IMG/VR virus record: IMGVR_UViG_3300049491_001102 | Span: 32,001 to 96,000 of that record | Reading direction: 5' to 3' (one strand) | Origin: a virus | DNA length: 64,000 bases | Shown: positions 5,596-57,795 of the stretch, one piece after another | How the letters are laid out: every line of letters starts with the position of its first letter | Position numbering within the stretch: the stretch's first letter is position 1 | Notes under the pieces: generated by a model | The model's input: the letters and a program-made list of their open reading frames with translations, nothing else | Database searches by the model: none | Told to the model about the DNA's origin: nothing | Program-made: the position numbers and the translations under genes

Positions 5596-6990
5596 ATGAC
5601 CATGAACGTCCCAGCGTTAAACCTCACGGTCAGCGGGGTGATGGCTGCTGCCCGCTACAAGGCTTGCAGCATTGCTCCCTATTTTGCGGACGGCTTGCTC
5701 GCCTTGATCCCAATGCCATGCCCCGGTTTTGGGACGTTCGCGGTGTCCGAGCACGGACACCTCATTTACGATCCCGACGTGGTGCTGGCCTGGGGTGTCG
5801 ATGTGGTCTGCACGGTTTACCTCCACGAGTTGCAGCACGTCTTGCGCAACCATGCTCAGCGCGCGCGGTCGCAAGGAGTCAGCGCGGCAACGGCCGATGC
5901 TTGGGGACAAGCCGTGGACGCGGAGATCAACGACGACCTGGTCGCGATGAAGCTTCCATTTCCCGATGGTCGCTGCGTTTTGCCCAGCACGCTGTCCAAG
6001 ACCGCGCCTGATGGTCTCTCGGCCGAAGAATATTACCTGCTCCTGCCGATCGACAATCAAGGATGTCGGCAGCCAAACGGTAAGCCAGGCGTCAACGGTT
6101 CCGGCGGCACCGGCATTCCGCTGCCCCAAGAACCGGACACTTCCGGACCAAATGCTGTCCCGGGCCGAACCCCCGCGGACATGCAGCTCATCCGCAACCA
6201 GTGCGCGGACAAGCTGCAAAAAGCCAAAAATATGGGAAACAATGGGTCTATACCCGGTGGATTCCTGCGTTGGGCTGAAGAGGTATTGGCACCACCTCCT
6301 TACGACTGGAAACAGCACCTGGAAACACGGGCAAACAACGTTTGCGCGTTCGTGCGTGGCAAAAAGAGTCGCACCTACAGCCAGCAATCGCGACGCCAAG
6401 GCATCTATGGCTATGGCTCCGGTGTGCCCGTGGTCGCAGCTCGGCGCAGCCCCATCGTCACAAGTGCCATCATGCTCGATACGAGCGGGTCGATGGATGA
6501 CGACGACATCGCTATGGGTCTCGGCATCATCGGCAAAGTGCTGCAGCACTCCACCGATCGCACGATGTTCCTAAGCTGTGATGCGGCAGTCAACACGCTT
6601 GCGAATGTTCGGTCGCTTGCAGACGTCAAAAAACTAGTTGTCGGTGGTGGTGGTACGGATTTTCGCCCAGGCTTCGCCGCGCTTGCCAAAGATCCACCTG
6701 CGGTGCTCTTCGTGCTCACAGACGGTGATGGTCCAGCACCAGCGCTCAATCACCTCCACACCACAGAAATCGTATGGGTCCTCATCGGGGACCATGCCGT
6801 GATTCCATTCTGCGACAACGCTCGACGGTCCACTGTTCCCTACGGCGAAATCGTGTGGGCTTCCGACGAAGCCCGCAAACGCAATCGCGATGCCGAAGGC
6901 AATCGCAAACGAGTGCTCCCCGAAGTGGCCGACGATGGCGATGGCCAGGATGATGACGACGATGACGATAGTGCTAACGCTACCCCCTAA
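5596..6990 (+). CDS. HExxH metallopeptidase-like (DUF2201-type) + vWA domain protein
   Basis: YLHELQHVLRNH, DAEIND, SAEEYY; MIDAS LDTSGSM, GGGGTDFRP, VLTDGDG. Confidence 0.88.
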   Translation: MTMNVPALNLTVSGVMAAARYKACSIAPYFADGLLALIPMPCPGFGTFAVSEHGHLIYDPDVVLAWGVDVVCTVYLHELQHVLRNHAQRARSQGVSAATADAWGQAVDAEINDDLVAMKLPFPDGRCVLPSTLSKTAPDGLSAEEYYLLLPIDNQGCRQPNGKPGVNGSGGTGIPLPQEPDTSGPNAVPGRTPADMQLIRNQCADKLQKAKNMGNNGSIPGGFLRWAEEVLAPPPYDWKQHLETRANNVCAFVRGKKSRTYSQQSRRQGIYGYGSGVPVVAARRSPIVTSAIMLDTSGSMDDDDIAMGLGIIGKVLQHSTDRTMFLSCDAAVNTLANVRSLADVKKLVVGGGGTDFRPGFAALAKDPPAVLFVLTDGDGPAPALNHLHTTEIVWVLIGDHAVIPFCDNARRSTVPYGEIVWASDEARKRNRDAEGNRKRVLPEVADDGDGQDDDDDDDSANATP

Positions 6991-7162
6991 CCTTCGTGTG
7001 CTGGTGGAGTTCCTCGATCGCAACGAAGCCCATCTTCCTCGCGACGAGAGAACTGCAATCGATGTTAAGGAGATGGACTATCATGACTACCTCGCCCTCC
7101 CCTTGGACAAAATGGCCAATTGTCGGATTGCAAAAACTCTCAGCGATGCTGAGCGCGGCTAA
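6971..7162 (+). CDS. Small hypothetical protein
   Basis: GTG 6971 start within track ORF 6890..7162; fills the gap before the endolysin. Confidence 0.4.
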   Translation: MLTLPPNLRVLVEFLDRNEAHLPRDERTAIDVKEMDYHDYLALPLDKMANCRIAKTLSDAERG

Positions 7163-7928
7163 AGCCGCCGTCGTGCCCACGCGTGAAGTTTCATTGCGCT
7201 CTGACCCTGAGCCCTCCATGGTGATGCCGCCTGCTCCTGCATTCATCACCCAAGAGCCCTACGTTCTAGGTTTCGACATTTCACATCATCAAGTTGTCGT
7301 CGAGTTTGAGGCGATGTTTGAGCAGGGCTATCGGTTCTGCTTTCTGAAGGCGACGGAGGGCAACACGTTCCGCGACAAAATGTTCGCCAATCATGCGCAT
7401 CGAGCCCATCAGGCCGGTTTGCACATCGGCGCCTACCATTTCGCCCGTGTGCGTCGAGATGATGATGTGTCTTTTCTCGACCAAGGGATTCGACAAGCTC
7501 GTTTTTGTGCGAAGACCGTCCGCGAATCCGTGCCCAAAGGATGCGCAATTCTTCCCATCGTTCTTGACGTCGAGTGGCATGACTCTTTGAAGACCGGCAA
7601 AATCTTGCCGCCGGAACTCATCACGTTCATTTCTGCTTTCAACCTCGAAATTGAACGACTTGGGTTTAGCGAAATCATCGTCTATACCGGACCGAGCTTC
7701 TATAAGCAGTACATCAAGCGGCCATTGACCTACAAACTTTGGCTTGTTTCAGGGTACAACCGAAAGTTCAAGCCGACGAAGGTCATTCCTGACTGGAATG
7801 CCAATTTTTACCAGTTCTACAACAAGCAACCGGTTCCGCACCGCAACACGGACCGCGGGCTGAACATCGACGTCAACGTCTTCTACGGCACAGAGACAGA
7901 TCTTGCCGGACTTTTACGGCAAGTTTAG
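7146..7928 (+). CDS. GH25 muramidase (endolysin)
   Basis: GFDISHHQ, FLKATEG, GAYHF, LDVE catalytic DxE, IVYT, FYQF, IDVNVF. Confidence 0.92.
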   Translation: MLSAAKAAVVPTREVSLRSDPEPSMVMPPAPAFITQEPYVLGFDISHHQVVVEFEAMFEQGYRFCFLKATEGNTFRDKMFANHAHRAHQAGLHIGAYHFARVRRDDDVSFLDQGIRQARFCAKTVRESVPKGCAILPIVLDVEWHDSLKTGKILPPELITFISAFNLEIERLGFSEIIVYTGPSFYKQYIKRPLTYKLWLVSGYNRKFKPTKVIPDWNANFYQFYNKQPVPHRNTDRGLNIDVNVFYGTETDLAGLLRQV

Positions 7929-8694: not shown

Positions 8695-9268
8695 AGGCCC
8701 CGATGGCGCCGGCAAGACAACGGCGTGCGAACTCCTTGCGGCAACGTTAAGTACCGAGCACCGTGAGCTACGCGGCCGCACCATCTTTACACATCAGCCG
8801 GGAACTGTCCTGGGGCCCTATGTGAAGAAGATCGTCACTGAAGGCAAAACAACGGCGGTGGAGGAAGCCACGATGTTTGCCGCCCTCCAAACCATGGTTT
8901 GGTTCGAGTGCGTGCAGCCACCGTCGGACAAATTCTTTGTAACGGACCGTTACTCCATGTCGACGTTTTGCTACCAGTCGGCGCGCCACGACGGGGAGTT
9001 GAACGACATCTTGCGCATCGTTCAAACCGTGCCCCATCCGGATCTCACGATTGTGCTGAGTCCTGATTTCGAAACATGCCAACAACGGATTGCTCAGCGT
9101 GGGCACGGAAACAACTTTGATCGTGATGTAGAGTTGCAGCGTAAAGTTCATCGTCTTTACGAGTTCACGGTCACCGCTCCTGCAGGTGTCTTCGGCGACG
9201 TCGTTTATTGCTTGACCGCTGATGAAGCTGTTGAGCACTTTCTGCGCTATGTCCAATCCGTGGCATAG
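8618..9268 (+). CDS. tmk: Thymidylate (dTMP) kinase
   Basis: IAIEGPDGAGKTT P-loop, THQPG, VTDRYSMSTFCYQ, PHPDLTIVL; TTG 8618 has GAGG SD (ATG 8573 is an alternative start). Confidence 0.88.
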   Translation: MTKQNEILNASIRYPANTRAKLIAIEGPDGAGKTTACELLAATLSTEHRELRGRTIFTHQPGTVLGPYVKKIVTEGKTTAVEEATMFAALQTMVWFECVQPPSDKFFVTDRYSMSTFCYQSARHDGELNDILRIVQTVPHPDLTIVLSPDFETCQQRIAQRGHGNNFDRDVELQRKVHRLYEFTVTAPAGVFGDVVYCLTADEAVEHFLRYVQSVA

Positions 9269-9935
9269 CCTCATCTTTGGGTTTGACCCCGGCACGAAGT
9301 TCGGATGGAGCGTGTTCGTCAATGGCGAACTCGTTGCGTCAGGGACTTTTTTGACGTTTCGGTCAGGCGACCACATTGGTCTGCGCTACAGCAACTTAGT
9401 TTCGTTTCTAACCGAGTTGTTTCATCTCTATGTCATCGATCCTCTCGACACGCTCGTTGGGTACGAAGACATTGATTTCAACATCTTCAAGTCGAAGGAT
9501 AACCTTCGTGTCTACGCTGGCTTGGTGGCAATCATGGAGATGGTGTGCGCGAACTTTGGCCTGAAAGAGATCCGCGGCGTCAACCCTACAACGTTGAAAA
9601 AGCATTCCACCGGTGACGAGAAGGCGACCAAGCAACAAATGCTGCTGGAAGCAATTAGTCGCTTTGATATCCGCGCCCAGTCGGATGACCACGCGGATGC
9701 GTGCCTGATCGGCGCTTACTTTAAGGATTTCCCATGTCCAACAATGGAACCCGCCGTGCAAACTCGTTTCGCAAACAAACAAAAAAAGCGCGAGAGGAAA
9801 GCACGGAAAGCCGCCAAGACAGCGGCAGCGTTACCAAAATTTACGCCTTCGTCACCGATCACGCTGCCTCCCATCCCCTCACCCAAGAAAAGGGCTACGA
9901 GGCAACCGCGGTCACTGAAACTGGTGAAGTCGTAA
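9249..9935 (+). CDS. RuvC-like Holliday junction resolvase with basic C-terminal tail
   Basis: IFGFDPGTKFGWS, VGYED, NPTTLKKHSTG..KATKQQM, DDHADA. Confidence 0.85.
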   Translation: MSNPWHSLIFGFDPGTKFGWSVFVNGELVASGTFLTFRSGDHIGLRYSNLVSFLTELFHLYVIDPLDTLVGYEDIDFNIFKSKDNLRVYAGLVAIMEMVCANFGLKEIRGVNPTTLKKHSTGDEKATKQQMLLEAISRFDIRAQSDDHADACLIGAYFKDFPCPTMEPAVQTRFANKQKKRERKARKAAKTAAALPKFTPSSPITLPPIPSPKKRATRQPRSLKLVKS

Positions 9936-11801: not shown

Positions 11802-12106
11802 TGGATGACCAACTACTTCAAGCACTCTTCACTGAGGTTTTGAAAGTAAAGCCACGACCAATATTAGCCACAATCGGGGAAGCAGTTTCCTGTTGTAGTA
11901 GTGATTTTCGCCAGTTAGACAAAGAGCGTCAAATATGGGCTGAGTTAGCACTCGCCGCATTACGGCACCTTGTGCGTGACGAGAACGCTGGTGATCGCCC
12001 GGACCAAGAAGATATCGATGAGTCCGTCGCTATGCTAAAGCACGTTATTCAACGGGCTAAATCGCGTGCTGAACACAAACCGCTATTTCAACCGGGCACA
12101 CGCTAG
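11801..12106 (+). CDS. Hypothetical protein
   Basis: Coupled start/stop with both neighbours. Confidence 0.55.
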   Translation: MDDQLLQALFTEVLKVKPRPILATIGEAVSCCSSDFRQLDKERQIWAELALAALRHLVRDENAGDRPDQEDIDESVAMLKHVIQRAKSRAEHKPLFQPGTR

Positions 12107-12763
12107 ATGACCACGACAATTGAACGGTCCGCACCTGTCGCTGGTCAACGTTGGAAGCACTACAAAGGCACGGTATACACGGTCGTGTGCATCGCTCAAT
12201 CTACCGCGGATTTAGAAAAGAAACTCGTCATCTACCGTGATGGTGACAAGTCTTACGCGAGACCAATCGAAGAGTTCATGGAGTATGTAGCCGCAATCCA
12301 GAAACCTAGATTCAAACAAGTTTCAGCCGGTGCCCATATCCCATCAAACGTTGACAACCCGCCAATCTGTCCCTACTGCCAAAATGCTGCGCAACTTGTG
12401 CTCGGTGGCCGCATCTATCCCCACCGGTACGACCTTGCAGAGTTGCAAATGTGGCTTTGTTCCCGATGCAACGCTTGGGTTGGCTGCCACAAACCGAGTG
12501 CACATAGCGACGGCACCGTCCCATTTGGCCGACTTGCCAACGCAGAGCTGCGTGGACTCAAGACGCAAGCCCACGCCGCATTCGATCCGCTTTGGAAAAA
12601 TCATGGCATCACGCGAGATGACGCCTACGCATGGCTTGCCGAAGAGCTCGGGTTAGCCAAAGATCTCACGCACATTGGTATGTTTGACGAAGACACGTGT
12701 CGCCGTGTTATCGAACTCTGTATAACCACGGACCCAAGGAAAATTCGTGCTCTCGCAAAATAA
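12107..12763 (+). CDS. DUF1653-like + DUF3268-like zinc-finger fusion protein
   Basis: N-term WKHYKGTVYTV...LVIYR...YARPIEEF...PRF; C-term CPYC...YPHRYDL...WLCSRCNAWVGCH...GRLANAELR...AHAAFDPLW...AYAWLA...HIGMFD. Confidence 0.75.
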   Translation: MTTTIERSAPVAGQRWKHYKGTVYTVVCIAQSTADLEKKLVIYRDGDKSYARPIEEFMEYVAAIQKPRFKQVSAGAHIPSNVDNPPICPYCQNAAQLVLGGRIYPHRYDLAELQMWLCSRCNAWVGCHKPSAHSDGTVPFGRLANAELRGLKTQAHAAFDPLWKNHGITRDDAYAWLAEELGLAKDLTHIGMFDEDTCRRVIELCITTDPRKIRALAK

Positions 12764-12965
12764 GCCAAGCATCTTTTCGGCCGTCGTTGCGGTCACGCTA
12801 ATAGTTGTGCTCGCTTTAGGCATCTATTCAGATTGCTCATTCTCAAAACGATGCGAAGCTGTCGGCGGCATCGTGGCCAAAAGTCACGTTGGAAGCCATT
12901 GTATCGATCGCCGTGTTCTCATTGATGACCAGGTCATGCCCCCACCGCGGGCGCAAGGACCATGA
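12747..12965 (+). CDS. Small membrane protein
   Basis: One TM segment followed by CEAVGG...C motif. Confidence 0.55.
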   Translation: MLSQNKPSIFSAVVAVTLIVVLALGIYSDCSFSKRCEAVGGIVAKSHVGSHCIDRRVLIDDQVMPPPRAQGP

Positions 12966-13141
12966 ACAACAAGAAGCAATCAGGGATGAACGGCTACGGA
13001 CGAAAAATTTGGATGTGCCGCAAAGGATGCTGTTGCAGCATCCCCCACTGGCGCCAAGGCAAGAAGCAGGGTCGGCGCAAAAGCAAAGAAGCAGTGCGAG
13101 ACCAACTAGTCTCCTCTGATCAAAGCCAAGTCACGGAGTAA
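12962..13141 (+). CDS. 59-aa basic Cys-rich peptide
   Basis: Own translation from ATGA-coupled start: MNNKKQSGMNGYGRKIWMCRKGCCCSIPHWRQGKKQGRRKSKEAVRDQLVSSDQSQVTE; below the track length cut-off. Confidence 0.55.
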   Translation: MNNKKQSGMNGYGRKIWMCRKGCCCSIPHWRQGKKQGRRKSKEAVRDQLVSSDQSQVTE

Positions 13142-14166
13142 GGATCTCCCCAAGCAGCTCGGGTGCCACGATGGTTGCTATCCGAACCTAATGCGATCTG
13201 TGTGATCCCTGCCGCGTCCGCAATCCAGCGACGCACGGGTTCCCCGTCTCGCCATTGCTCCCAAACAACCCGCCAAGTGGGTACCTCGACTTGGAAAAGT
13301 TGGGTTGAACTGCGTTCGTCTTCGGCAACATGACGGACGCCAACTTCTTCAATCACATGAAGAGACCATCGTTTTCCCCCACCGGGCGACATTGAGAAGG
13401 CTGCAAACGTATGTTCTCCCGGGATAAGCATTTTTTCGTGAAGTGCTAACCCACGAGATTCAATACCGGGAGCTTGTCGTGTTAGGCCCAGAGTGCATAA
13501 AGCAACTTCTATGCCACTCTCCCAAAAATGAGTCGTTTCTGGAGAAGTCGCAACAACTTCATTTTCCAAACGGTCAAGGAGTGCTAACGCGTTTGTTAGG
13601 GCTTCTGTTGTTTTAGGGTTTGGATCTTTGACACTTGGGTCTTTAATATGTGCTCGGACAACACTCGCAACGTAATCGCGGGCCAACGCTGTAATTGTCG
13701 GATGCATGTCCGTTGCACACCATTGGGACAAGTCATCTTTCGACCCATAGTGGAAGTCGCGACCATCGAAAACGCCGTAGTAAACCTCACCACGCGAAGG
13801 CGCTATCCAAAAGATCGAAGGGCCTTTAACGTGCCAGAGATAATCGGGTCCGCCGCCGACTCGCCCTGCGTCACCAAAAGCATAGTGTCCGCAAGCTAAT
13901 TCCGTGGCGTCACCAAAGATGAGAACACATCCACCACTAGCACCACGAATGTACGATGTCTTTGTGTTGCAGCGCCATAAAACACCACTTTGACCCCGAT
14001 CCTTTGTGATGATCACTCGACCGTCCAAACCAGTGATGAACCCGCAATTGTTGGGGTCAATGTTTGGTCCGCCAGTACCGATTTTGACGAGTGTGCGGCC
14101 GCGACCCGCTTCGCCGAGTTCAAGTGGGAGGGTCAGGGATTGAGTGTTGTTGCTGAGGAGTCTCAC
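13120..14166 (-). CDS. Hypothetical 348-aa protein, downstream gene of the XRE-controlled unit
   Basis: GTG with AAGG SD; motifs LGEAGRGR and AFGDAGRVGGGPDYL. Confidence 0.7.
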   Translation of the reverse strand: MRLLSNNTQSLTLPLELGEAGRGRTLVKIGTGGPNIDPNNCGFITGLDGRVIITKDRGQSGVLWRCNTKTSYIRGASGGCVLIFGDATELACGHYAFGDAGRVGGGPDYLWHVKGPSIFWIAPSRGEVYYGVFDGRDFHYGSKDDLSQWCATDMHPTITALARDYVASVVRAHIKDPSVKDPNPKTTEALTNALALLDRLENEVVATSPETTHFWESGIEVALCTLGLTRQAPGIESRGLALHEKMLIPGEHTFAAFSMSPGGGKRWSLHVIEEVGVRHVAEDERSSTQLFQVEVPTWRVVWEQWRDGEPVRRWIADAAGITQIALGSDSNHRGTRAAWGDPYSVTWL

Positions 14167-14232
14167 AACGCCTTAACCGGCCCTTGGTGCTGTATCAACA
14201 CCAGGAATCCGGCGAATGCAGTCCGAGAAGAA

Positions 14233-14523
14233 CTACGGGTATTTGTTAGGATTTCGCGCGACGCTAGCGTTGGCGTGAAAGACAGCGGTCTCCACCCCTC
14301 GAATAGCGAGCGTCAAGTCGGCAGACGCTGGGCAGTTGTTCACAAGGAGAAGCGCGAACGCTTTTGCGGCTTCGCGAATGCGATCATAGACTTCCGCCTG
14401 TGACGGCTTTGGTGGGTGATACGTAAAGACGTCGTTCAGGCTTTGTCCTGCGAGAATTGGAGCCGTGGTGGTGGTCGATGGCTGGCCAAAGACGTTGACG
14501 GTAGTTTCGGTGGTGACGGTCAT
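14233..14523 (-). CDS. Acb2/Tad1-like helical-hairpin protein (candidate signalling-nucleotide sponge)
   Basis: FTYHPPKPSQAEVYDRIREAAKAFALLLVNNCPASADLTLAIRGVETAVFHANASVARN matches the FxYHxP...Y..IR..AK.....CP.S....LA....E.A...ANA..AR pattern, recalled for the Acb2/Tad1 hairpin family. Confidence 0.6.
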   Translation of the reverse strand: MTVTTETTVNVFGQPSTTTTAPILAGQSLNDVFTYHPPKPSQAEVYDRIREAAKAFALLLVNNCPASADLTLAIRGVETAVFHANASVARNPNKYP

Positions 14524-14564
14524 GGGAGTCTCTTCTCGGTGTCGTCGAATCCGGCGACTACAGG

Positions 14565-14593
14565 AATATAGGTCAGCAACCTATAGTCCGCAA
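14565..14593 (-). promoter_or_regulatory. Sigma70-like promoter with embedded palindromic operator
   Basis: TTGCGG-17nt-TATATT; inverted repeat TATAGG-N7-CCTATA at 14567..14585. Confidence 0.75.
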
Positions 14594-14597
14594 GCCC

Positions 14598-14882
14598 TCA
14601 GCGCGCGGGCCGAAGTTTTTCCGCGAAATCCGCGCCCAACTCTTTGCGCATTCGCTCCAACGTCGGCAAAAAGAAACCTGGGTCAACGTTTAGGGCAGCG
14701 CTGAGTCGCGCCAACATCCGACACGATGCATTCATCGTGCCCCGCTCTAAATCGCTGATATGCGATTGTGGAACGCCGGTGGCCTCCGCCAATTCACGTT
14801 GGCTCAGGTCTGCCAGCGTGCGCGCAGCAGTGAGCTTGCGGCCGATTAGAACTGCGAGAGGATCGGGGTCGCGCGAAGGCAC
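14598..14882 (-). CDS. XRE-family HTH transcriptional regulator
   Basis: IGRKLTAARTLADLSQRELAEATGVPQSHISDLERG...LARLSAALNV. Confidence 0.92.
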   Translation of the reverse strand: MPSRDPDPLAVLIGRKLTAARTLADLSQRELAEATGVPQSHISDLERGTMNASCRMLARLSAALNVDPGFFLPTLERMRKELGADFAEKLRPAR

Positions 14883-14887
14883 ACCAT

Positions 14888-14909
14888 ATAATAGGGCATC
14901 AACCTATTA
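14888..14909 (-). promoter_or_regulatory. Operator overlapping the -10 of the XRE gene (autoregulation, leaderless start)
   Basis: TAATAGG-N7-CCTATTA at 14889..14909; -10 TATTAT lies 5 nt upstream of GTG 14882. Confidence 0.7.
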
Positions 14910-14911
14910 GG

Positions 14912-15106
14912 TCAGCGTGCCGCGGGGAAAATTCGAAAGCTCGCGTCGGTGCCGATTGCTTGTTGGCGCAGTTCGGCGACCCGGCGCAAGGCTTCGTCCT
15001 CATCTTCGAATGTGCTGGCGTCGAGCGTTTCAAAAGCAGGGCGCCAGCTTGCTGTCCGCCCACCCCAGGTGCCATGCACCTGTAGCAGGTAGACGACGTC
15101 GTTCAC
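14912..15106 (-). CDS. Small hypothetical protein, end of the late operon
   Basis: GTGA-coupled to the holin candidate. Confidence 0.5.
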   Translation of the reverse strand: MNDVVYLLQVHGTWGGRTASWRPAFETLDASTFEDEDEALRRVAELRQQAIGTDASFRIFPAAR

Positions 15107-15336
15107 GCTTGGTCCTTGTGACCTTGACCCGGCGGGAGCATCACCGCCTTCGCGGCGTCGGAAAGCGAGATGCCTCCGATCGCGGTAGCGGCCAAGATCG
15201 TCACTTGCTCGGCAAGCTTTTCAGCTACGCCATCTTCAAGTCCAAGTCCTAGACGGACAGCAATTAAGCTGATGCCACTTCCGACGAGAACAACGAAGCG
15301 TTTGCTTTTGAGAAGGTCAACAATTGCTTGGATCAT
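15103..15336 (-). CDS. Putative holin (2 TM)
   Basis: 77 aa; KSKRF followed by two hydrophobic segments; at the end of the virion operon. Confidence 0.55.
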   Translation of the reverse strand: MIQAIVDLLKSKRFVVLVGSGISLIAVRLGLGLEDGVAEKLAEQVTILAATAIGGISLSDAAKAVMLPPGQGHKDQA

Positions 15337-15923
15337 TTTCTGGACTTTACGAGATCATCTAGGAAGATCTCAGCTTTGATGTGTTCAGCATTCTTTTCTG
15401 GATAAGGGCGACTCTTGTTCCTACTCCAGGTAACGATGCGATGCTGGTATTCATCGTCAAATTTACTGACAGCCGCTCTAGCCTGTTGAATCTGCTGCTG
15501 GTGCTTATCCAGTTCAACTAACATAGTTACGCTCTGTTGAAGCGCATTTATGTTTTTACCGTTGGTATTAAGCACGTCAATGATTGGTTGCAGCTTAGCG
15601 TCGAGCTTTTCTTCTGTAACGATAGCCTGACTCCACAGAACAAAAGCACCTCCCAATGAAAATGCTAACGCGATCAGCGATAGTATGTTCTTTGGATTAA
15701 GCATAGCTTTTAGCCATGATTCAGGTTTAGACGCTTTTTTGCGCTCTTGGTCGAATACTTCGCCGACCATCGTTGTTATCTTGGGCATCATGTTGTCCAC
15801 GATAAACCCAAGCTGCGCACGAACGCGTGCGTCATCGTTGTCTGTACTAGGTTCTTGTTGAGGTACAGGCATGGTGATCACCCGAAATCGCTTATTTTCT
15901 CCGCGAATCATTGGCATCCCCAC
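15333..15923 (-). CDS. Single-TM coiled-coil membrane protein (lysis-associated?)
   Basis: ILSLIALAFSLGGAFVLW TM followed by coiled coil; adjacent to the holin candidate. Confidence 0.5.
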   Translation of the reverse strand: MGMPMIRGENKRFRVITMPVPQQEPSTDNDDARVRAQLGFIVDNMMPKITTMVGEVFDQERKKASKPESWLKAMLNPKNILSLIALAFSLGGAFVLWSQAIVTEEKLDAKLQPIIDVLNTNGKNINALQQSVTMLVELDKHQQQIQQARAAVSKFDDEYQHRIVTWSRNKSRPYPEKNAEHIKAEIFLDDLVKSRK

Positions 15924-15975
15924 ACCTAATGATTAACACGGAACAGTCAATCAGTTTGAACAGTATTAGGCCGAA

Positions 15976-16713
15976 CTATGGTGAATTACGAACCAATCCG
16001 CTGGGCGGAATCTGGTCGGCTTTGAGACGCTTCAGGAGTTTATTCAACTTCCGCTGCACCTCATCTACTTCTACTTTGCTAATCGACAATTCTGCTTCTG
16101 CAAGAATTTTTCGATCGTCAGCGGAAAATAGATGGCTTCTCTTGTTAGCCAAAGCTTTCAACTGTTGAGTTTTAGCCACATTCTGCGAGAAGTCGTCTAG
16201 TTTCCGATTGCGAATTGTCGTCGCGTCTTCGGCATCTTTTCGGACTTTCTCTGCGGATCGGATAGCCCCAATCGCTTGTTTCTCCGCTCGCACAGCAGGT
16301 GACAATGCGCGAAGCAATGCTTCTCGTTCTGCTTTATCCCCAAGAAATGTTCTCTTGTTGGCGGCAGCTTGTTTTCTGGCTTTTGTACCAAGATCGTCAA
16401 TTTTGTTCTTCTTATAGAACTTCTTGAGTTTGTTCTTGATGTCTGCCTCGGGCGGTGTAACGAACTGGTCCTTTTTTGCAAGACATCCAACAAGGATACC
16501 CATGAGATTGGGTTCAATGGAGTCATCATCTGCAAAGTGCAGCGGAGCAAAACCTTGAATAGATGAGGAACAATGAGCGCATGACCCAACGACGACAGTG
16601 TTGCATTCGGCACCACTTAGTCGAATAACATCTAGCCGCACTGTGGTTTCTTCATGACAAGCTTGGCATGAGAAAGTCACTGTTCCAGCGTCTTCATTGA
16701 TTTCTGTGATCAT
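15976..16713 (-). CDS. Zn-ribbon (CxxC x2) protein with basic helical C-terminus
   Basis: CQAC...CAHC; Lys/Arg-rich coiled region. Confidence 0.6.
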   Translation of the reverse strand: MITEINEDAGTVTFSCQACHEETTVRLDVIRLSGAECNTVVVGSCAHCSSSIQGFAPLHFADDDSIEPNLMGILVGCLAKKDQFVTPPEADIKNKLKKFYKKNKIDDLGTKARKQAAANKRTFLGDKAEREALLRALSPAVRAEKQAIGAIRSAEKVRKDAEDATTIRNRKLDDFSQNVAKTQQLKALANKRSHLFSADDRKILAEAELSISKVEVDEVQRKLNKLLKRLKADQIPPSGLVRNSP

Positions 16714-57761: not shown

Positions 57762-57767
57762 ACGATG

Positions 57768-57795
57768 AGGTTACTGTCCTATGGCTTTTTGTCAA
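57768..57795 (-). promoter_or_regulatory. Sigma70-like promoter, leaderless, for the HNH gene
   Basis: TTGACA-16nt-TAACCT-6nt-ATG. Confidence 0.65.

Follow-up and report, generated by a model that had tools for sequence, protein, structure and literature searches.

A putative Aca-like cassette of a novel phage links an Acb2/Tad1-family sponge to a candidate new family of counter-defence proteins

We analysed in silico a stretch of viral DNA of 64,000 nucleotides (the window), which comprises bases 32001-96000 of the 111,463-bp IMG/VR virus record IMGVR_UViG_3300049491_001102, rated complete by CheckV. The window carries a small cassette on its minus strand, in which the gene of an XRE-family helix-turn-helix (HTH) regulator is followed by the genes of a 96-amino-acid (aa) protein of the Acb2/Tad1 family of signal sponges and of a 348-aa protein of an uncharacterised family, and in which two nearly identical palindromes lie over the promoters. 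With slightly better than even confidence, we read this as an Aca-like autoregulated anti-signalling cassette that includes a candidate new counter-defence family. An earlier note, made from the letters of the DNA alone, had proposed such an arrangement; its XRE call and the coordinates of its three open reading frames (ORFs), all on the minus strand, are borne out by Pfam HTH_3 and by the ORF list. The main features, in window positions, are the following:

14888..14915, minus strand: promoter P1 of the XRE gene, CTGACC-16-TATTAT (consensus scan, 9/12)
14889..14909, minus strand: candidate operator O1, TAATAGG-TTGATGC-CCTATTA, with 7-bp arms (sequence and motif scans)
14598..14882, minus strand: XRE-family HTH regulator, 94 aa (Pfam HTH_3, E 5.4e-14)
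14565..14593, minus strand: promoter P2 of the sponge and 348-aa genes, TTGCGG-17-TATATT (sequence; 8/12 to consensus)
14567..14585, minus strand: candidate operator O2, TATAGG-TTGCTGA-CCTATA, with 6-bp arms (sequence and motif scans)
14233..14523, minus strand: Acb2/Tad1-family protein, 96 aa, FTYHPP clade (PF24729, E 3.5e-14; phrog_1454, 4e-17)
13120..14166, minus strand: 348-aa protein of an uncharacterised family (ORF, homologue alignment, AlphaFold2 (AF2) model)

The 348-aa protein became a stronger and more specific counter-defence candidate than the sequence alone had given. We read the genomic surroundings of its family in 8 independent contexts, and 4 of the 8 link it to removers of cyclic-nucleotide signals. 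The first is the window phage itself, with the Acb2/Tad1 sponge. The second is a fusion protein (P0085), where the N-terminal domain of the family (E 9e-13) is joined to PADLOC Unk_01 (E 3.6e-24). Unk_01 is the broad-spectrum ring nuclease Crn4, which is present also on phages and plasmids (PMC12830947). In the third, a small-genome metagenome-assembled genome (L024), Cas_csx3 (E 8.7e-23) and the AAA half of Csx3-AAA (E 2.6e-38) lie immediately upstream of the family member. This block is rich in G+C (GC), and since it adjoins a tRNA gene and a large serine recombinase, it reads as an integrated element. In the fourth (L027), a GC-rich gene of 295 aa with a Csx15-like domain (E 4.3e-9) immediately precedes the member. 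This gene adjoins what we take to be ParB-like and DNA-methylase genes, read from their N-termini only and unchecked. Csx15 itself is a CARF-like candidate ring nuclease, and its investigators suggested it as a possible sponge of cyclic oligoadenylates (PMC12409355). The links to Csx3-AAA, the Csx15-like protein and Crn4 thus lend independent support to the counter-defence role that had been suggested for the 348-aa protein from its position beside the sponge. In a sample of 401 Patescibacteria genomes, Csx3 was found in 12 (3%), Csx15 in 2 (0.5%) and the 348-aa family in 5. Because Csx3 and Csx15 are so rare in the phylum sample, chance adjacency is negligible.

The other four contexts have no signal-remover neighbour; among them, a viral contig (L022) carries its member between ThyX and terminase, with no anti-defence gene beside it, and the rest are solitary genes in chromosomes of Patescibacteria/Saccharibacteria. 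Where full-length members lie in small genomes or contigs of low GC (L023, L025/L028, L026 and L027), each forms a GC-discordant islet of one gene, with a GC of 0.54-0.59 in the gene and of 0.32-0.44 in its flanks. Of these, L023 and L025 bear the label Patescibacteria/Saccharibacteria, L026 and L027 are metagenome contigs, and in L025/L028 the gene stands between housekeeping genes. Such discordance in low-GC genomes indicates recent horizontal arrival. Proteins that consist of the N-domain only are found among the small accessory genes of large phage contigs. A toxin-antitoxin reading of the 348-aa gene is thought unlikely, as the gene is solitary in cellular genomes.

Ring nucleases are often fused to, or lie beside, the effectors under their control, and the linkages could be turned around on this model, for which type III CRISPR loci give the examples: there, CARF or SAVED effectors carry Crn4, Csx15/16/20 and Csx3 as fusions. 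The 348-aa protein would then be a defence or exclusion protein, or a signal-responsive effector, of phages and mobile elements, and it would be switched off or kept within limits by the sponge or ring nuclease that adjoins it or is fused to it. Horizontally acquired defence genes typically look like the solitary GC-discordant islets that the family forms in cellular genomes, and tight repression by XRE would fit a toxic effector. We nevertheless consider this unlikely. Neither a CARF or SAVED domain nor any known effector domain came to light, and PADLOC has no match to the protein or its full-length relatives; a search of the L024 assembly for the cyclase Cas10 found none. Moreover, the window gene has a bona fide phage-type sponge as its neighbour and belongs to a phage whose genome yielded no integrase, and the N-domain-only relatives lie among small accessory genes of phage contigs.

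Several side observations were made at family loci. In two Patescibacteria genomes (L042:461-1908 and L043:9011-10320), the gene of an N-domain-only protein (172-173 aa) precedes that of a conserved partner (266-311 aa). The partners belong to no known family and match each other with E 7e-83, and the pair forms a two-gene GC-rich islet, which in L043 is adjoined by a DHH-phosphoesterase-like gene that stays below threshold (PF01368, E 0.001, 19.9 bits against a cut-off of 28.1). In L024, hammerhead-ribozyme-like motifs (CUGAUGAG...CGAAA) lie on both sides of the csx3/AAA/member block, at 6485-6525 and 9225-9279, and score 21.3 and 34.1 bits with Rfam Hammerhead_3, below the gathering score of 48.5. 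A promoter-like repeat, GTGGATAAyTG...TTGACA, is present three times in L024, where two intergenic stretches of greater length (5672-5904 and 9612-9865) are repeated as well. In a further Patescibacteria genome (G033, contig C7, 130997-132874), Csx3 and Csx15 matches lie less than 2 kb apart; this pair may belong to the accessory genes of a type III CRISPR system or form a further anti-signalling island.

Within the cassette, the 348-aa gene has the same orientation as the sponge gene and is separated from it by 66 bp, in which no terminator is predicted. Its GTG start follows AAGG at a distance of 4 nt and aligns with the N-termini of the homologues. The AF2 model is confident (predicted local distance difference test, pLDDT, 89.4) and comprises an N-terminal beta-domain (1-142), a helical linker (143-225) and a C-terminal beta-domain (240-345). 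No match to the protein was found in Pfam, PHROG or PADLOC, no match to its full-length relatives in PADLOC, none to the model among solved or viral structures, and none to profiles of the family among solved structures. An internal duplication was rejected, since hhalign of the N-domain against the C-domain gave no detectable homology (probability 1.2%). The motifs LGEAGRGR and AFGDAGRVGG, which the earlier note had picked out from the single sequence, are present and correspond in the alignment to family-conserved motifs, LGExGRGR and AxGDAGRxGxGPDxLWH of the N-domain; GPGGGKR[YW] is conserved in the C-domain. The conserved polar residues of the family are E19, R22, R24, Y72, D108, H112, H213, R266 and D307.

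An exhaustive search of representatives matched 106 proteins, about 30 of them full length with 30-37% identity. N-domain-only relatives of about 175 aa are many, and proteins with two N-domains span 450-950 aa. All ten representatives that we examined come from Logan assemblies. A word-index search with the 348-aa protein gave almost no matches, tblastn gave none in 50,697 phage records or 72,556 plasmids, single family proteins as queries gave none in viral contigs, and a protein-atlas search with the C-domain gave none either. One lead from the protein atlas, to trypsin-like serine peptidases (score 0.81), was dropped. The protein has no Trypsin Pfam match and no GDSGG-type serine; its motif is G-D-A-G-R, with an alanine that is invariant in the alignment of 23 full-length members and that is found, among about 110 family sequences, in every variant except a single, unchecked G-N-S-G-G.

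The 96-aa protein belongs to the Acb2/Tad1 family, as had been assigned from sequence: Pfam PF24729 (Acb2_Tad1_hairpin) matches it with 53.2 bits against a gathering cut-off of 27 and over profile positions 1-58 of 58, and the match was confirmed on the genome. The motif F-T-Y-H-P-P-K-P ... Y..IR is invariant among its homologues in 20 viral contigs, and the homologue profile matches the solved structures of Acb2_43 (9ptq, E 0.004) and Tad1 (E 0.006). In GenBank, 97 records of phages (of Paenibacillus, Gordonia, Streptomyces, Bacillus and others) contain relatives, which are mostly annotated as hypothetical. Among the 4,204 Acb2 homologues that Hadary et al. 2025 list in their supplement are many FTYHPP proteins, including A-D-x-T variants as in the window.

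In the AF2 model, helices 40-63 and 68-90 form a hairpin with pLDDT >90, and an N-terminal extension of about 32 aa, modelled with low confidence, lies ahead of it (hairpin residues 40-90). In the fold comparison with Acb2/Tad1 that the earlier note had named as a check, Foldseek placed Vs.4, CbTad1 and Acb2 at ranks 1, 2 and 4, but with E-values above 1 (1.1-2.9), which are non-significant, as is expected because the hairpin spans just 50 residues. Modelled as four copies, the protein is predicted to self-associate through the hairpin with a score of 0.70 against 0.01 for the best control, which may reflect memory of the solved Acb2/Tad1 oligomers. Among proteins solved as one-chain pairs 20 of 30 attained this mark, and among those solved as single chains 1 of 23; the runs had at least 79% contact agreement and a partner pLDDT of at least 65. 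The prediction shows likeness to solved complexes, not binding. Acb2 homologues have been reported to differ in ligand, e.g. 3',3'-cGAMP versus 3'cADPR (Hadary et al. 2025), and the ligand of the 96-aa protein is therefore not readable from its sequence.

The two palindromes lie on the minus strand exactly where they had been reported (14585..14567 and 14909..14889). Their placement over the -10 of P1 and inside P2 also holds in the sequence. The consensus scan itself lists P1; P2 is unlisted because its total of 8/12, with merely 3/6 in the -35, falls below the threshold. The core, ATAGG-N7-CCTAT, occurs in only two places in the window (14568-14584 and 14891-14907), also when one mismatch is allowed, and the genome-wide scan proposed earlier found the same two sites and no others in the 111,463 bp. 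From base composition we calculate about 0.1 exact core sites per genome and about 3e-5 pairs within 400 bp by chance (our own arithmetic), and the two sites are 323 bp apart. The palindrome arms of the core are identical, and O1 and O2 agree at 15 of 17 core positions, including 5 of the 7 positions of the non-palindromic spacer (TTGnTGn), in the same orientation. Their geometry is alike as well: both start 2-3 nt past a -35-like hexamer and occupy the 16-17 nt spacer, and the right arm ends in the TAT with which TATTAT (O1) or TATATT (O2) begins. A dimer on either operator would occlude RNA polymerase. P2 begins 4 nt past the XRE stop codon, and the -35 of P1 contains the stop codon (14912-14914) of an upstream 64-aa ORF.

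A weaker operator had been suggested at 57766..57782, and this site is at chance level. It has two arm mismatches, as have 17 other places of the genome, and with the spacer three mismatches in 15, a degree of likeness for which chance alone predicts about 2.8 sites; the spacer is inverted relative to the gene direction, and no credible -10 follows.

From its sequence context, XRE is a putative local autoregulator with predicted sites confined to P1 and P2, because it is the only protein in the whole genome with an HTH_3 match above cut-off, the motif is found only at P1 and P2, and no recombinase was found. A lysogeny repressor was considered and rejected, as no integrase or recombinase was found and the operator lies nowhere else in the genome. 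The GTG start of XRE (14882) is 6 nt past the -10 of P1 and is the only possible start, and it is not preceded by a Shine-Dalgarno sequence. Hence, the mRNA from P1 is predicted to be leaderless, and XRE is probably translated poorly or from such a leaderless mRNA. An ATG 3 nt upstream of the GTG (14885-14887) starts a 13-codon ORF in another frame.

The Aca-like circuit proposed in the earlier note stands in part. The HTH gene and the anti-defence gene lie in one unit, on the same strand and with no predicted terminator between them, and inverted repeats, as candidate binding sites, overlap the promoters of the operon. However, the XRE gene is upstream of both cargo genes and not downstream of them, and its nearest solved relatives are not Aca proteins. 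Against solved structures, XRE gave 18 matches at E 0.01 or better, none of them named Aca, and the nearest are the restriction-modification (R-M) controller proteins C.BclI (E 5.7e-7) and C.AhdI (E 3.2e-6). No close relatives were found in viral contigs. XRE might thus work like an R-M controller (C) protein, as a concentration-dependent activator and then repressor, so that the cassette would be switched on with a delay and not early and transiently. C genes are commonly leaderless, and here too the regulator comes first in the operon, is predicted to be leaderless and sits over its own promoter. What makes such a mode of action quite improbable in our view is the operator arrangement: each promoter has one palindrome over its whole spacer and -10, which is a repressing position, there are no paired OL/OR C-boxes with an activating site beside the -35, and no restriction or methylase gene follows downstream.

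The three genes do not travel together. None of 20 Acb2-homologue loci held a 348-aa homologue or a conserved XRE gene, which makes the trio unique to this phage, and 7 other loci of the 348-aa family had no Acb2 or XRE partner. The earlier note had named it as a refuting outcome that homologues of the three genes never co-occur, and no co-occurrence was seen in these 20 and 7 loci. Likewise, no Acb2 or Crn4 genes were found in the genomes or records that hold other family members. The linkage in the window could therefore be incidental, with XRE and its operators governing a moron cluster of unrelated functions and the 348-aa protein doing other work, e.g. in host takeover or metabolism; the L022 member between ThyX and terminase, and the lack of any fold or family match that would point to a function, are in line with this. 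Still, four unrelated signal-removing families stand beside or fused to the family in 8 contexts, two of them found in just 3% (Csx3) and 0.5% (Csx15) of the sampled phylum genomes, and we give an incidental linkage a small chance.

A number of points weigh against the anti-signalling cassette that we favour. The trio was seen in no other locus examined, the four linkages were recognised after the fact and among just 8 contexts, and lone GC-discordant family genes lie in Patescibacteria chromosomes without an anti-defence neighbour. With 348 aa, the protein is far larger than the known sponges, which are typically <100 aa. The 96-aa protein has A-S-A-D-L-T where most of its clade has S-R-E-x-S, and the ligand of the sponge is not predictable from sequence. 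On the side of regulation, the regulator-first order is unlike that of typical acr-aca operons, and the nearest relatives of XRE, the R-M controllers, are able to activate as well as to repress. The -35 of P2 is poor (3/6, measured against a sigma-70-like consensus that may not be of the host's type). Finally, the terminator scan predicted no terminator between the cassette and the upstream genes, so that read-through may add to cassette expression.

The favoured anti-signalling cassette would work as follows. The XRE protein, presumably as a dimer, would bind O1 and O2. From P1 the regulator's own gene would be transcribed, probably into a leaderless mRNA, and from P2, which follows the stop codon of that gene, the cargo. 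Before the regulator accumulates both promoters would fire, and later they would be shut, as Aca proteins shut anti-CRISPR operons. P2, together with read-through from P1, would express the oligomeric Acb2/Tad1-family sponge and the 348-aa protein. The sponge would sequester a cyclic-nucleotide or ADP-ribose (ADPR)-derived immune signal of the cyclic-oligonucleotide-based anti-phage signalling system (CBASS), of Thoeris or of a related system. The 348-aa protein may act in the same arena, i.e. in the removal or neutralisation of nucleotide immune signalling; it could bind a signal, cleave one, block an effector, or protect from systems that detect the depletion of a signal.

Of the earlier proposal, the sponge, the regulator and the two operators stand; the 348-aa family could be new in kind. 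A bolder suggestion, which we put forward tentatively and regard as rather less likely than its opposite, is that the family and its N-domain-only relatives of about 175 aa represent an unrecognised structural class of counter-defence protein against nucleotide-signalling immunity, which partners interchangeable signal removers (Acb2/Tad1, Csx3-AAA, Csx15-like and Crn4). Such a class could bind or cleave signals that its partner misses, or shield the element from depletion-sensing guards, e.g. Panoptes.

Most of the window is taken up by virion genes (portal, XkdF-type protease, minor tail/tape-measure protein and large tail proteins), which form a single long block on the minus strand, and the cassette lies at its distal end, just before convergent plus-strand genes. 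A whole-genome search of the phage found no tyrosine or serine recombinase, the portal protein is at most 33% identical to that of any GenBank phage, and the cassette region has no DNA match in GenBank phages. Based on the divergent portal and the missing recombinase, the uncultured phage is novel and probably virulent. The smaller sequence elements in and around the cassette are the following:

14547..14557, minus strand: 11-bp direct repeat TCGCCGGATTC, copy 1, in the 5' untranslated region (UTR) of the sponge gene (repeat count in genome)
14205..14215, minus strand: 11-bp direct repeat TCGCCGGATTC, copy 2, between the sponge and 348-aa genes (repeat count in genome)
13022..13043, minus strand: possible transcription-unit end, a perfect 8-bp hairpin GGATGCTG-CAA-CAGCATCC followed by TTT (sequence)

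The repeat TCGCCGGATTC has two copies in the genome and no more, 23 nt before the sponge ATG and 17 nt past the sponge stop codon; the pair could be scars of cassette insertion or a 5'-UTR element common to both cargo genes. The hairpin lies 77 nt past the stop codon of the 348-aa gene and faces the convergent plus-strand genes; a 51-nt stretch around it has a local fold of -23.7 kcal/mol. It is possibly a weak end of the transcription unit, and the terminator scan omits it because its T run is short. An Rfam search of window positions 12000-16000 gave no family match, and the mRNA of the intergenic and sponge stretch shows nothing unusual in its fold (z -1.8).

The plus-strand block that converges on the cassette (5596-7928 and 12107-12763) encodes a DUF2201 metallopeptidase/VWA-like protein, a GH25 muramidase, which is a probable endolysin, and a DUF1653 + DUF3268 zinc-finger protein. 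Immediately upstream of the cassette, three small overlapping minus-strand ORFs of 196, 77 and 64 aa occupy 14912-15923, and the 196-aa ORF has a weak Rz-like spanin match (phrog_89, E 0.0013). The GC peak of the region falls on the 64-aa ORF (0.62) and the XRE gene (0.60), against 0.52 for the genome.

The counter-defence genes found so far to act on CBASS, Thoeris, Pycsar and type III CRISPR encode mainly very short sponges. Here, four unrelated signal-removing families are linked, on phages, on an integrated element and in a fusion protein, to an unstudied family whose predicted structure is confident but has no match. If its anti-signalling activity is true, the known repertoire would be wider in size and fold, and a new marker gene would be at hand for locating anti-defence loci. 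Moreover, the cassette offers a testable case of Aca-style autoregulation on a signal sponge instead of an anti-CRISPR. The family, as GC-discordant single-gene islets, also gives a lead into the immune conflicts of Patescibacteria (the candidate phyla radiation, CPR) and their mobile elements.

Compared with known systems, the 96-aa protein shares with Acb2 (PaMx33 Acb2, T4 Vs.4, Acb2_43) and Tad1 the family profile and the phage origin; a two-helix hairpin is modelled for it, and self-association through this hairpin is predicted. It stands apart by its N-terminal extension, by the A-S-A-D-L-T variant that most of its own clade lacks, and by the non-significant Foldseek E-values. The ligands of Acb2 homologues vary as well, e.g. 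cGAMP, cA3 or 3'cADPR. The regulator resembles Aca proteins, the autorepressors of acr-aca operons (PMC9410906, PMC6765145), in being a small HTH protein in a unit with an anti-defence gene, with inverted repeats over the promoter and a negative-autoregulation logic that is here predicted. Unlike in those operons, its gene comes first, two tandem promoters have one operator each, and the cargo is a signal sponge. C.BclI and C.AhdI are its best sequence matches among solved structures and are likewise small autoregulators that come first in their operons; in contrast to them, paired C-boxes and R-M genes are missing here, and the operator position predicts repression only.

On mobile elements, the 348-aa family repeatedly adjoins or is fused to ring nucleases and candidate sponges of cyclic oligoadenylates, namely Csx3/Crn3, Crn4 (Unk_01) and Csx15. 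It has in common with them that Arg, His, Asp and Glu residues are conserved and that its loops are rich in glycine. Resemblance to them was detected neither in sequence nor in fold, and the 348-aa protein is larger and has two beta-domains. Sequestin, Lockin, Acb4, Acb5 and Tad2 differ from it in being short homo-oligomers, and the published structure-guided screens, including the one that yielded these proteins, left out proteins >200 aa. The likeness lies in the route by which they came to light, as proteins fused to or encoded next to known sponges, or as residents of anti-defence hotspots: a fused or adjacent known sponge is a published way of discovery (10.1101/2025.07.12.664507), and anti-signalling genes are known to cluster in hotspots (10.64898/2026.06.04.730250).

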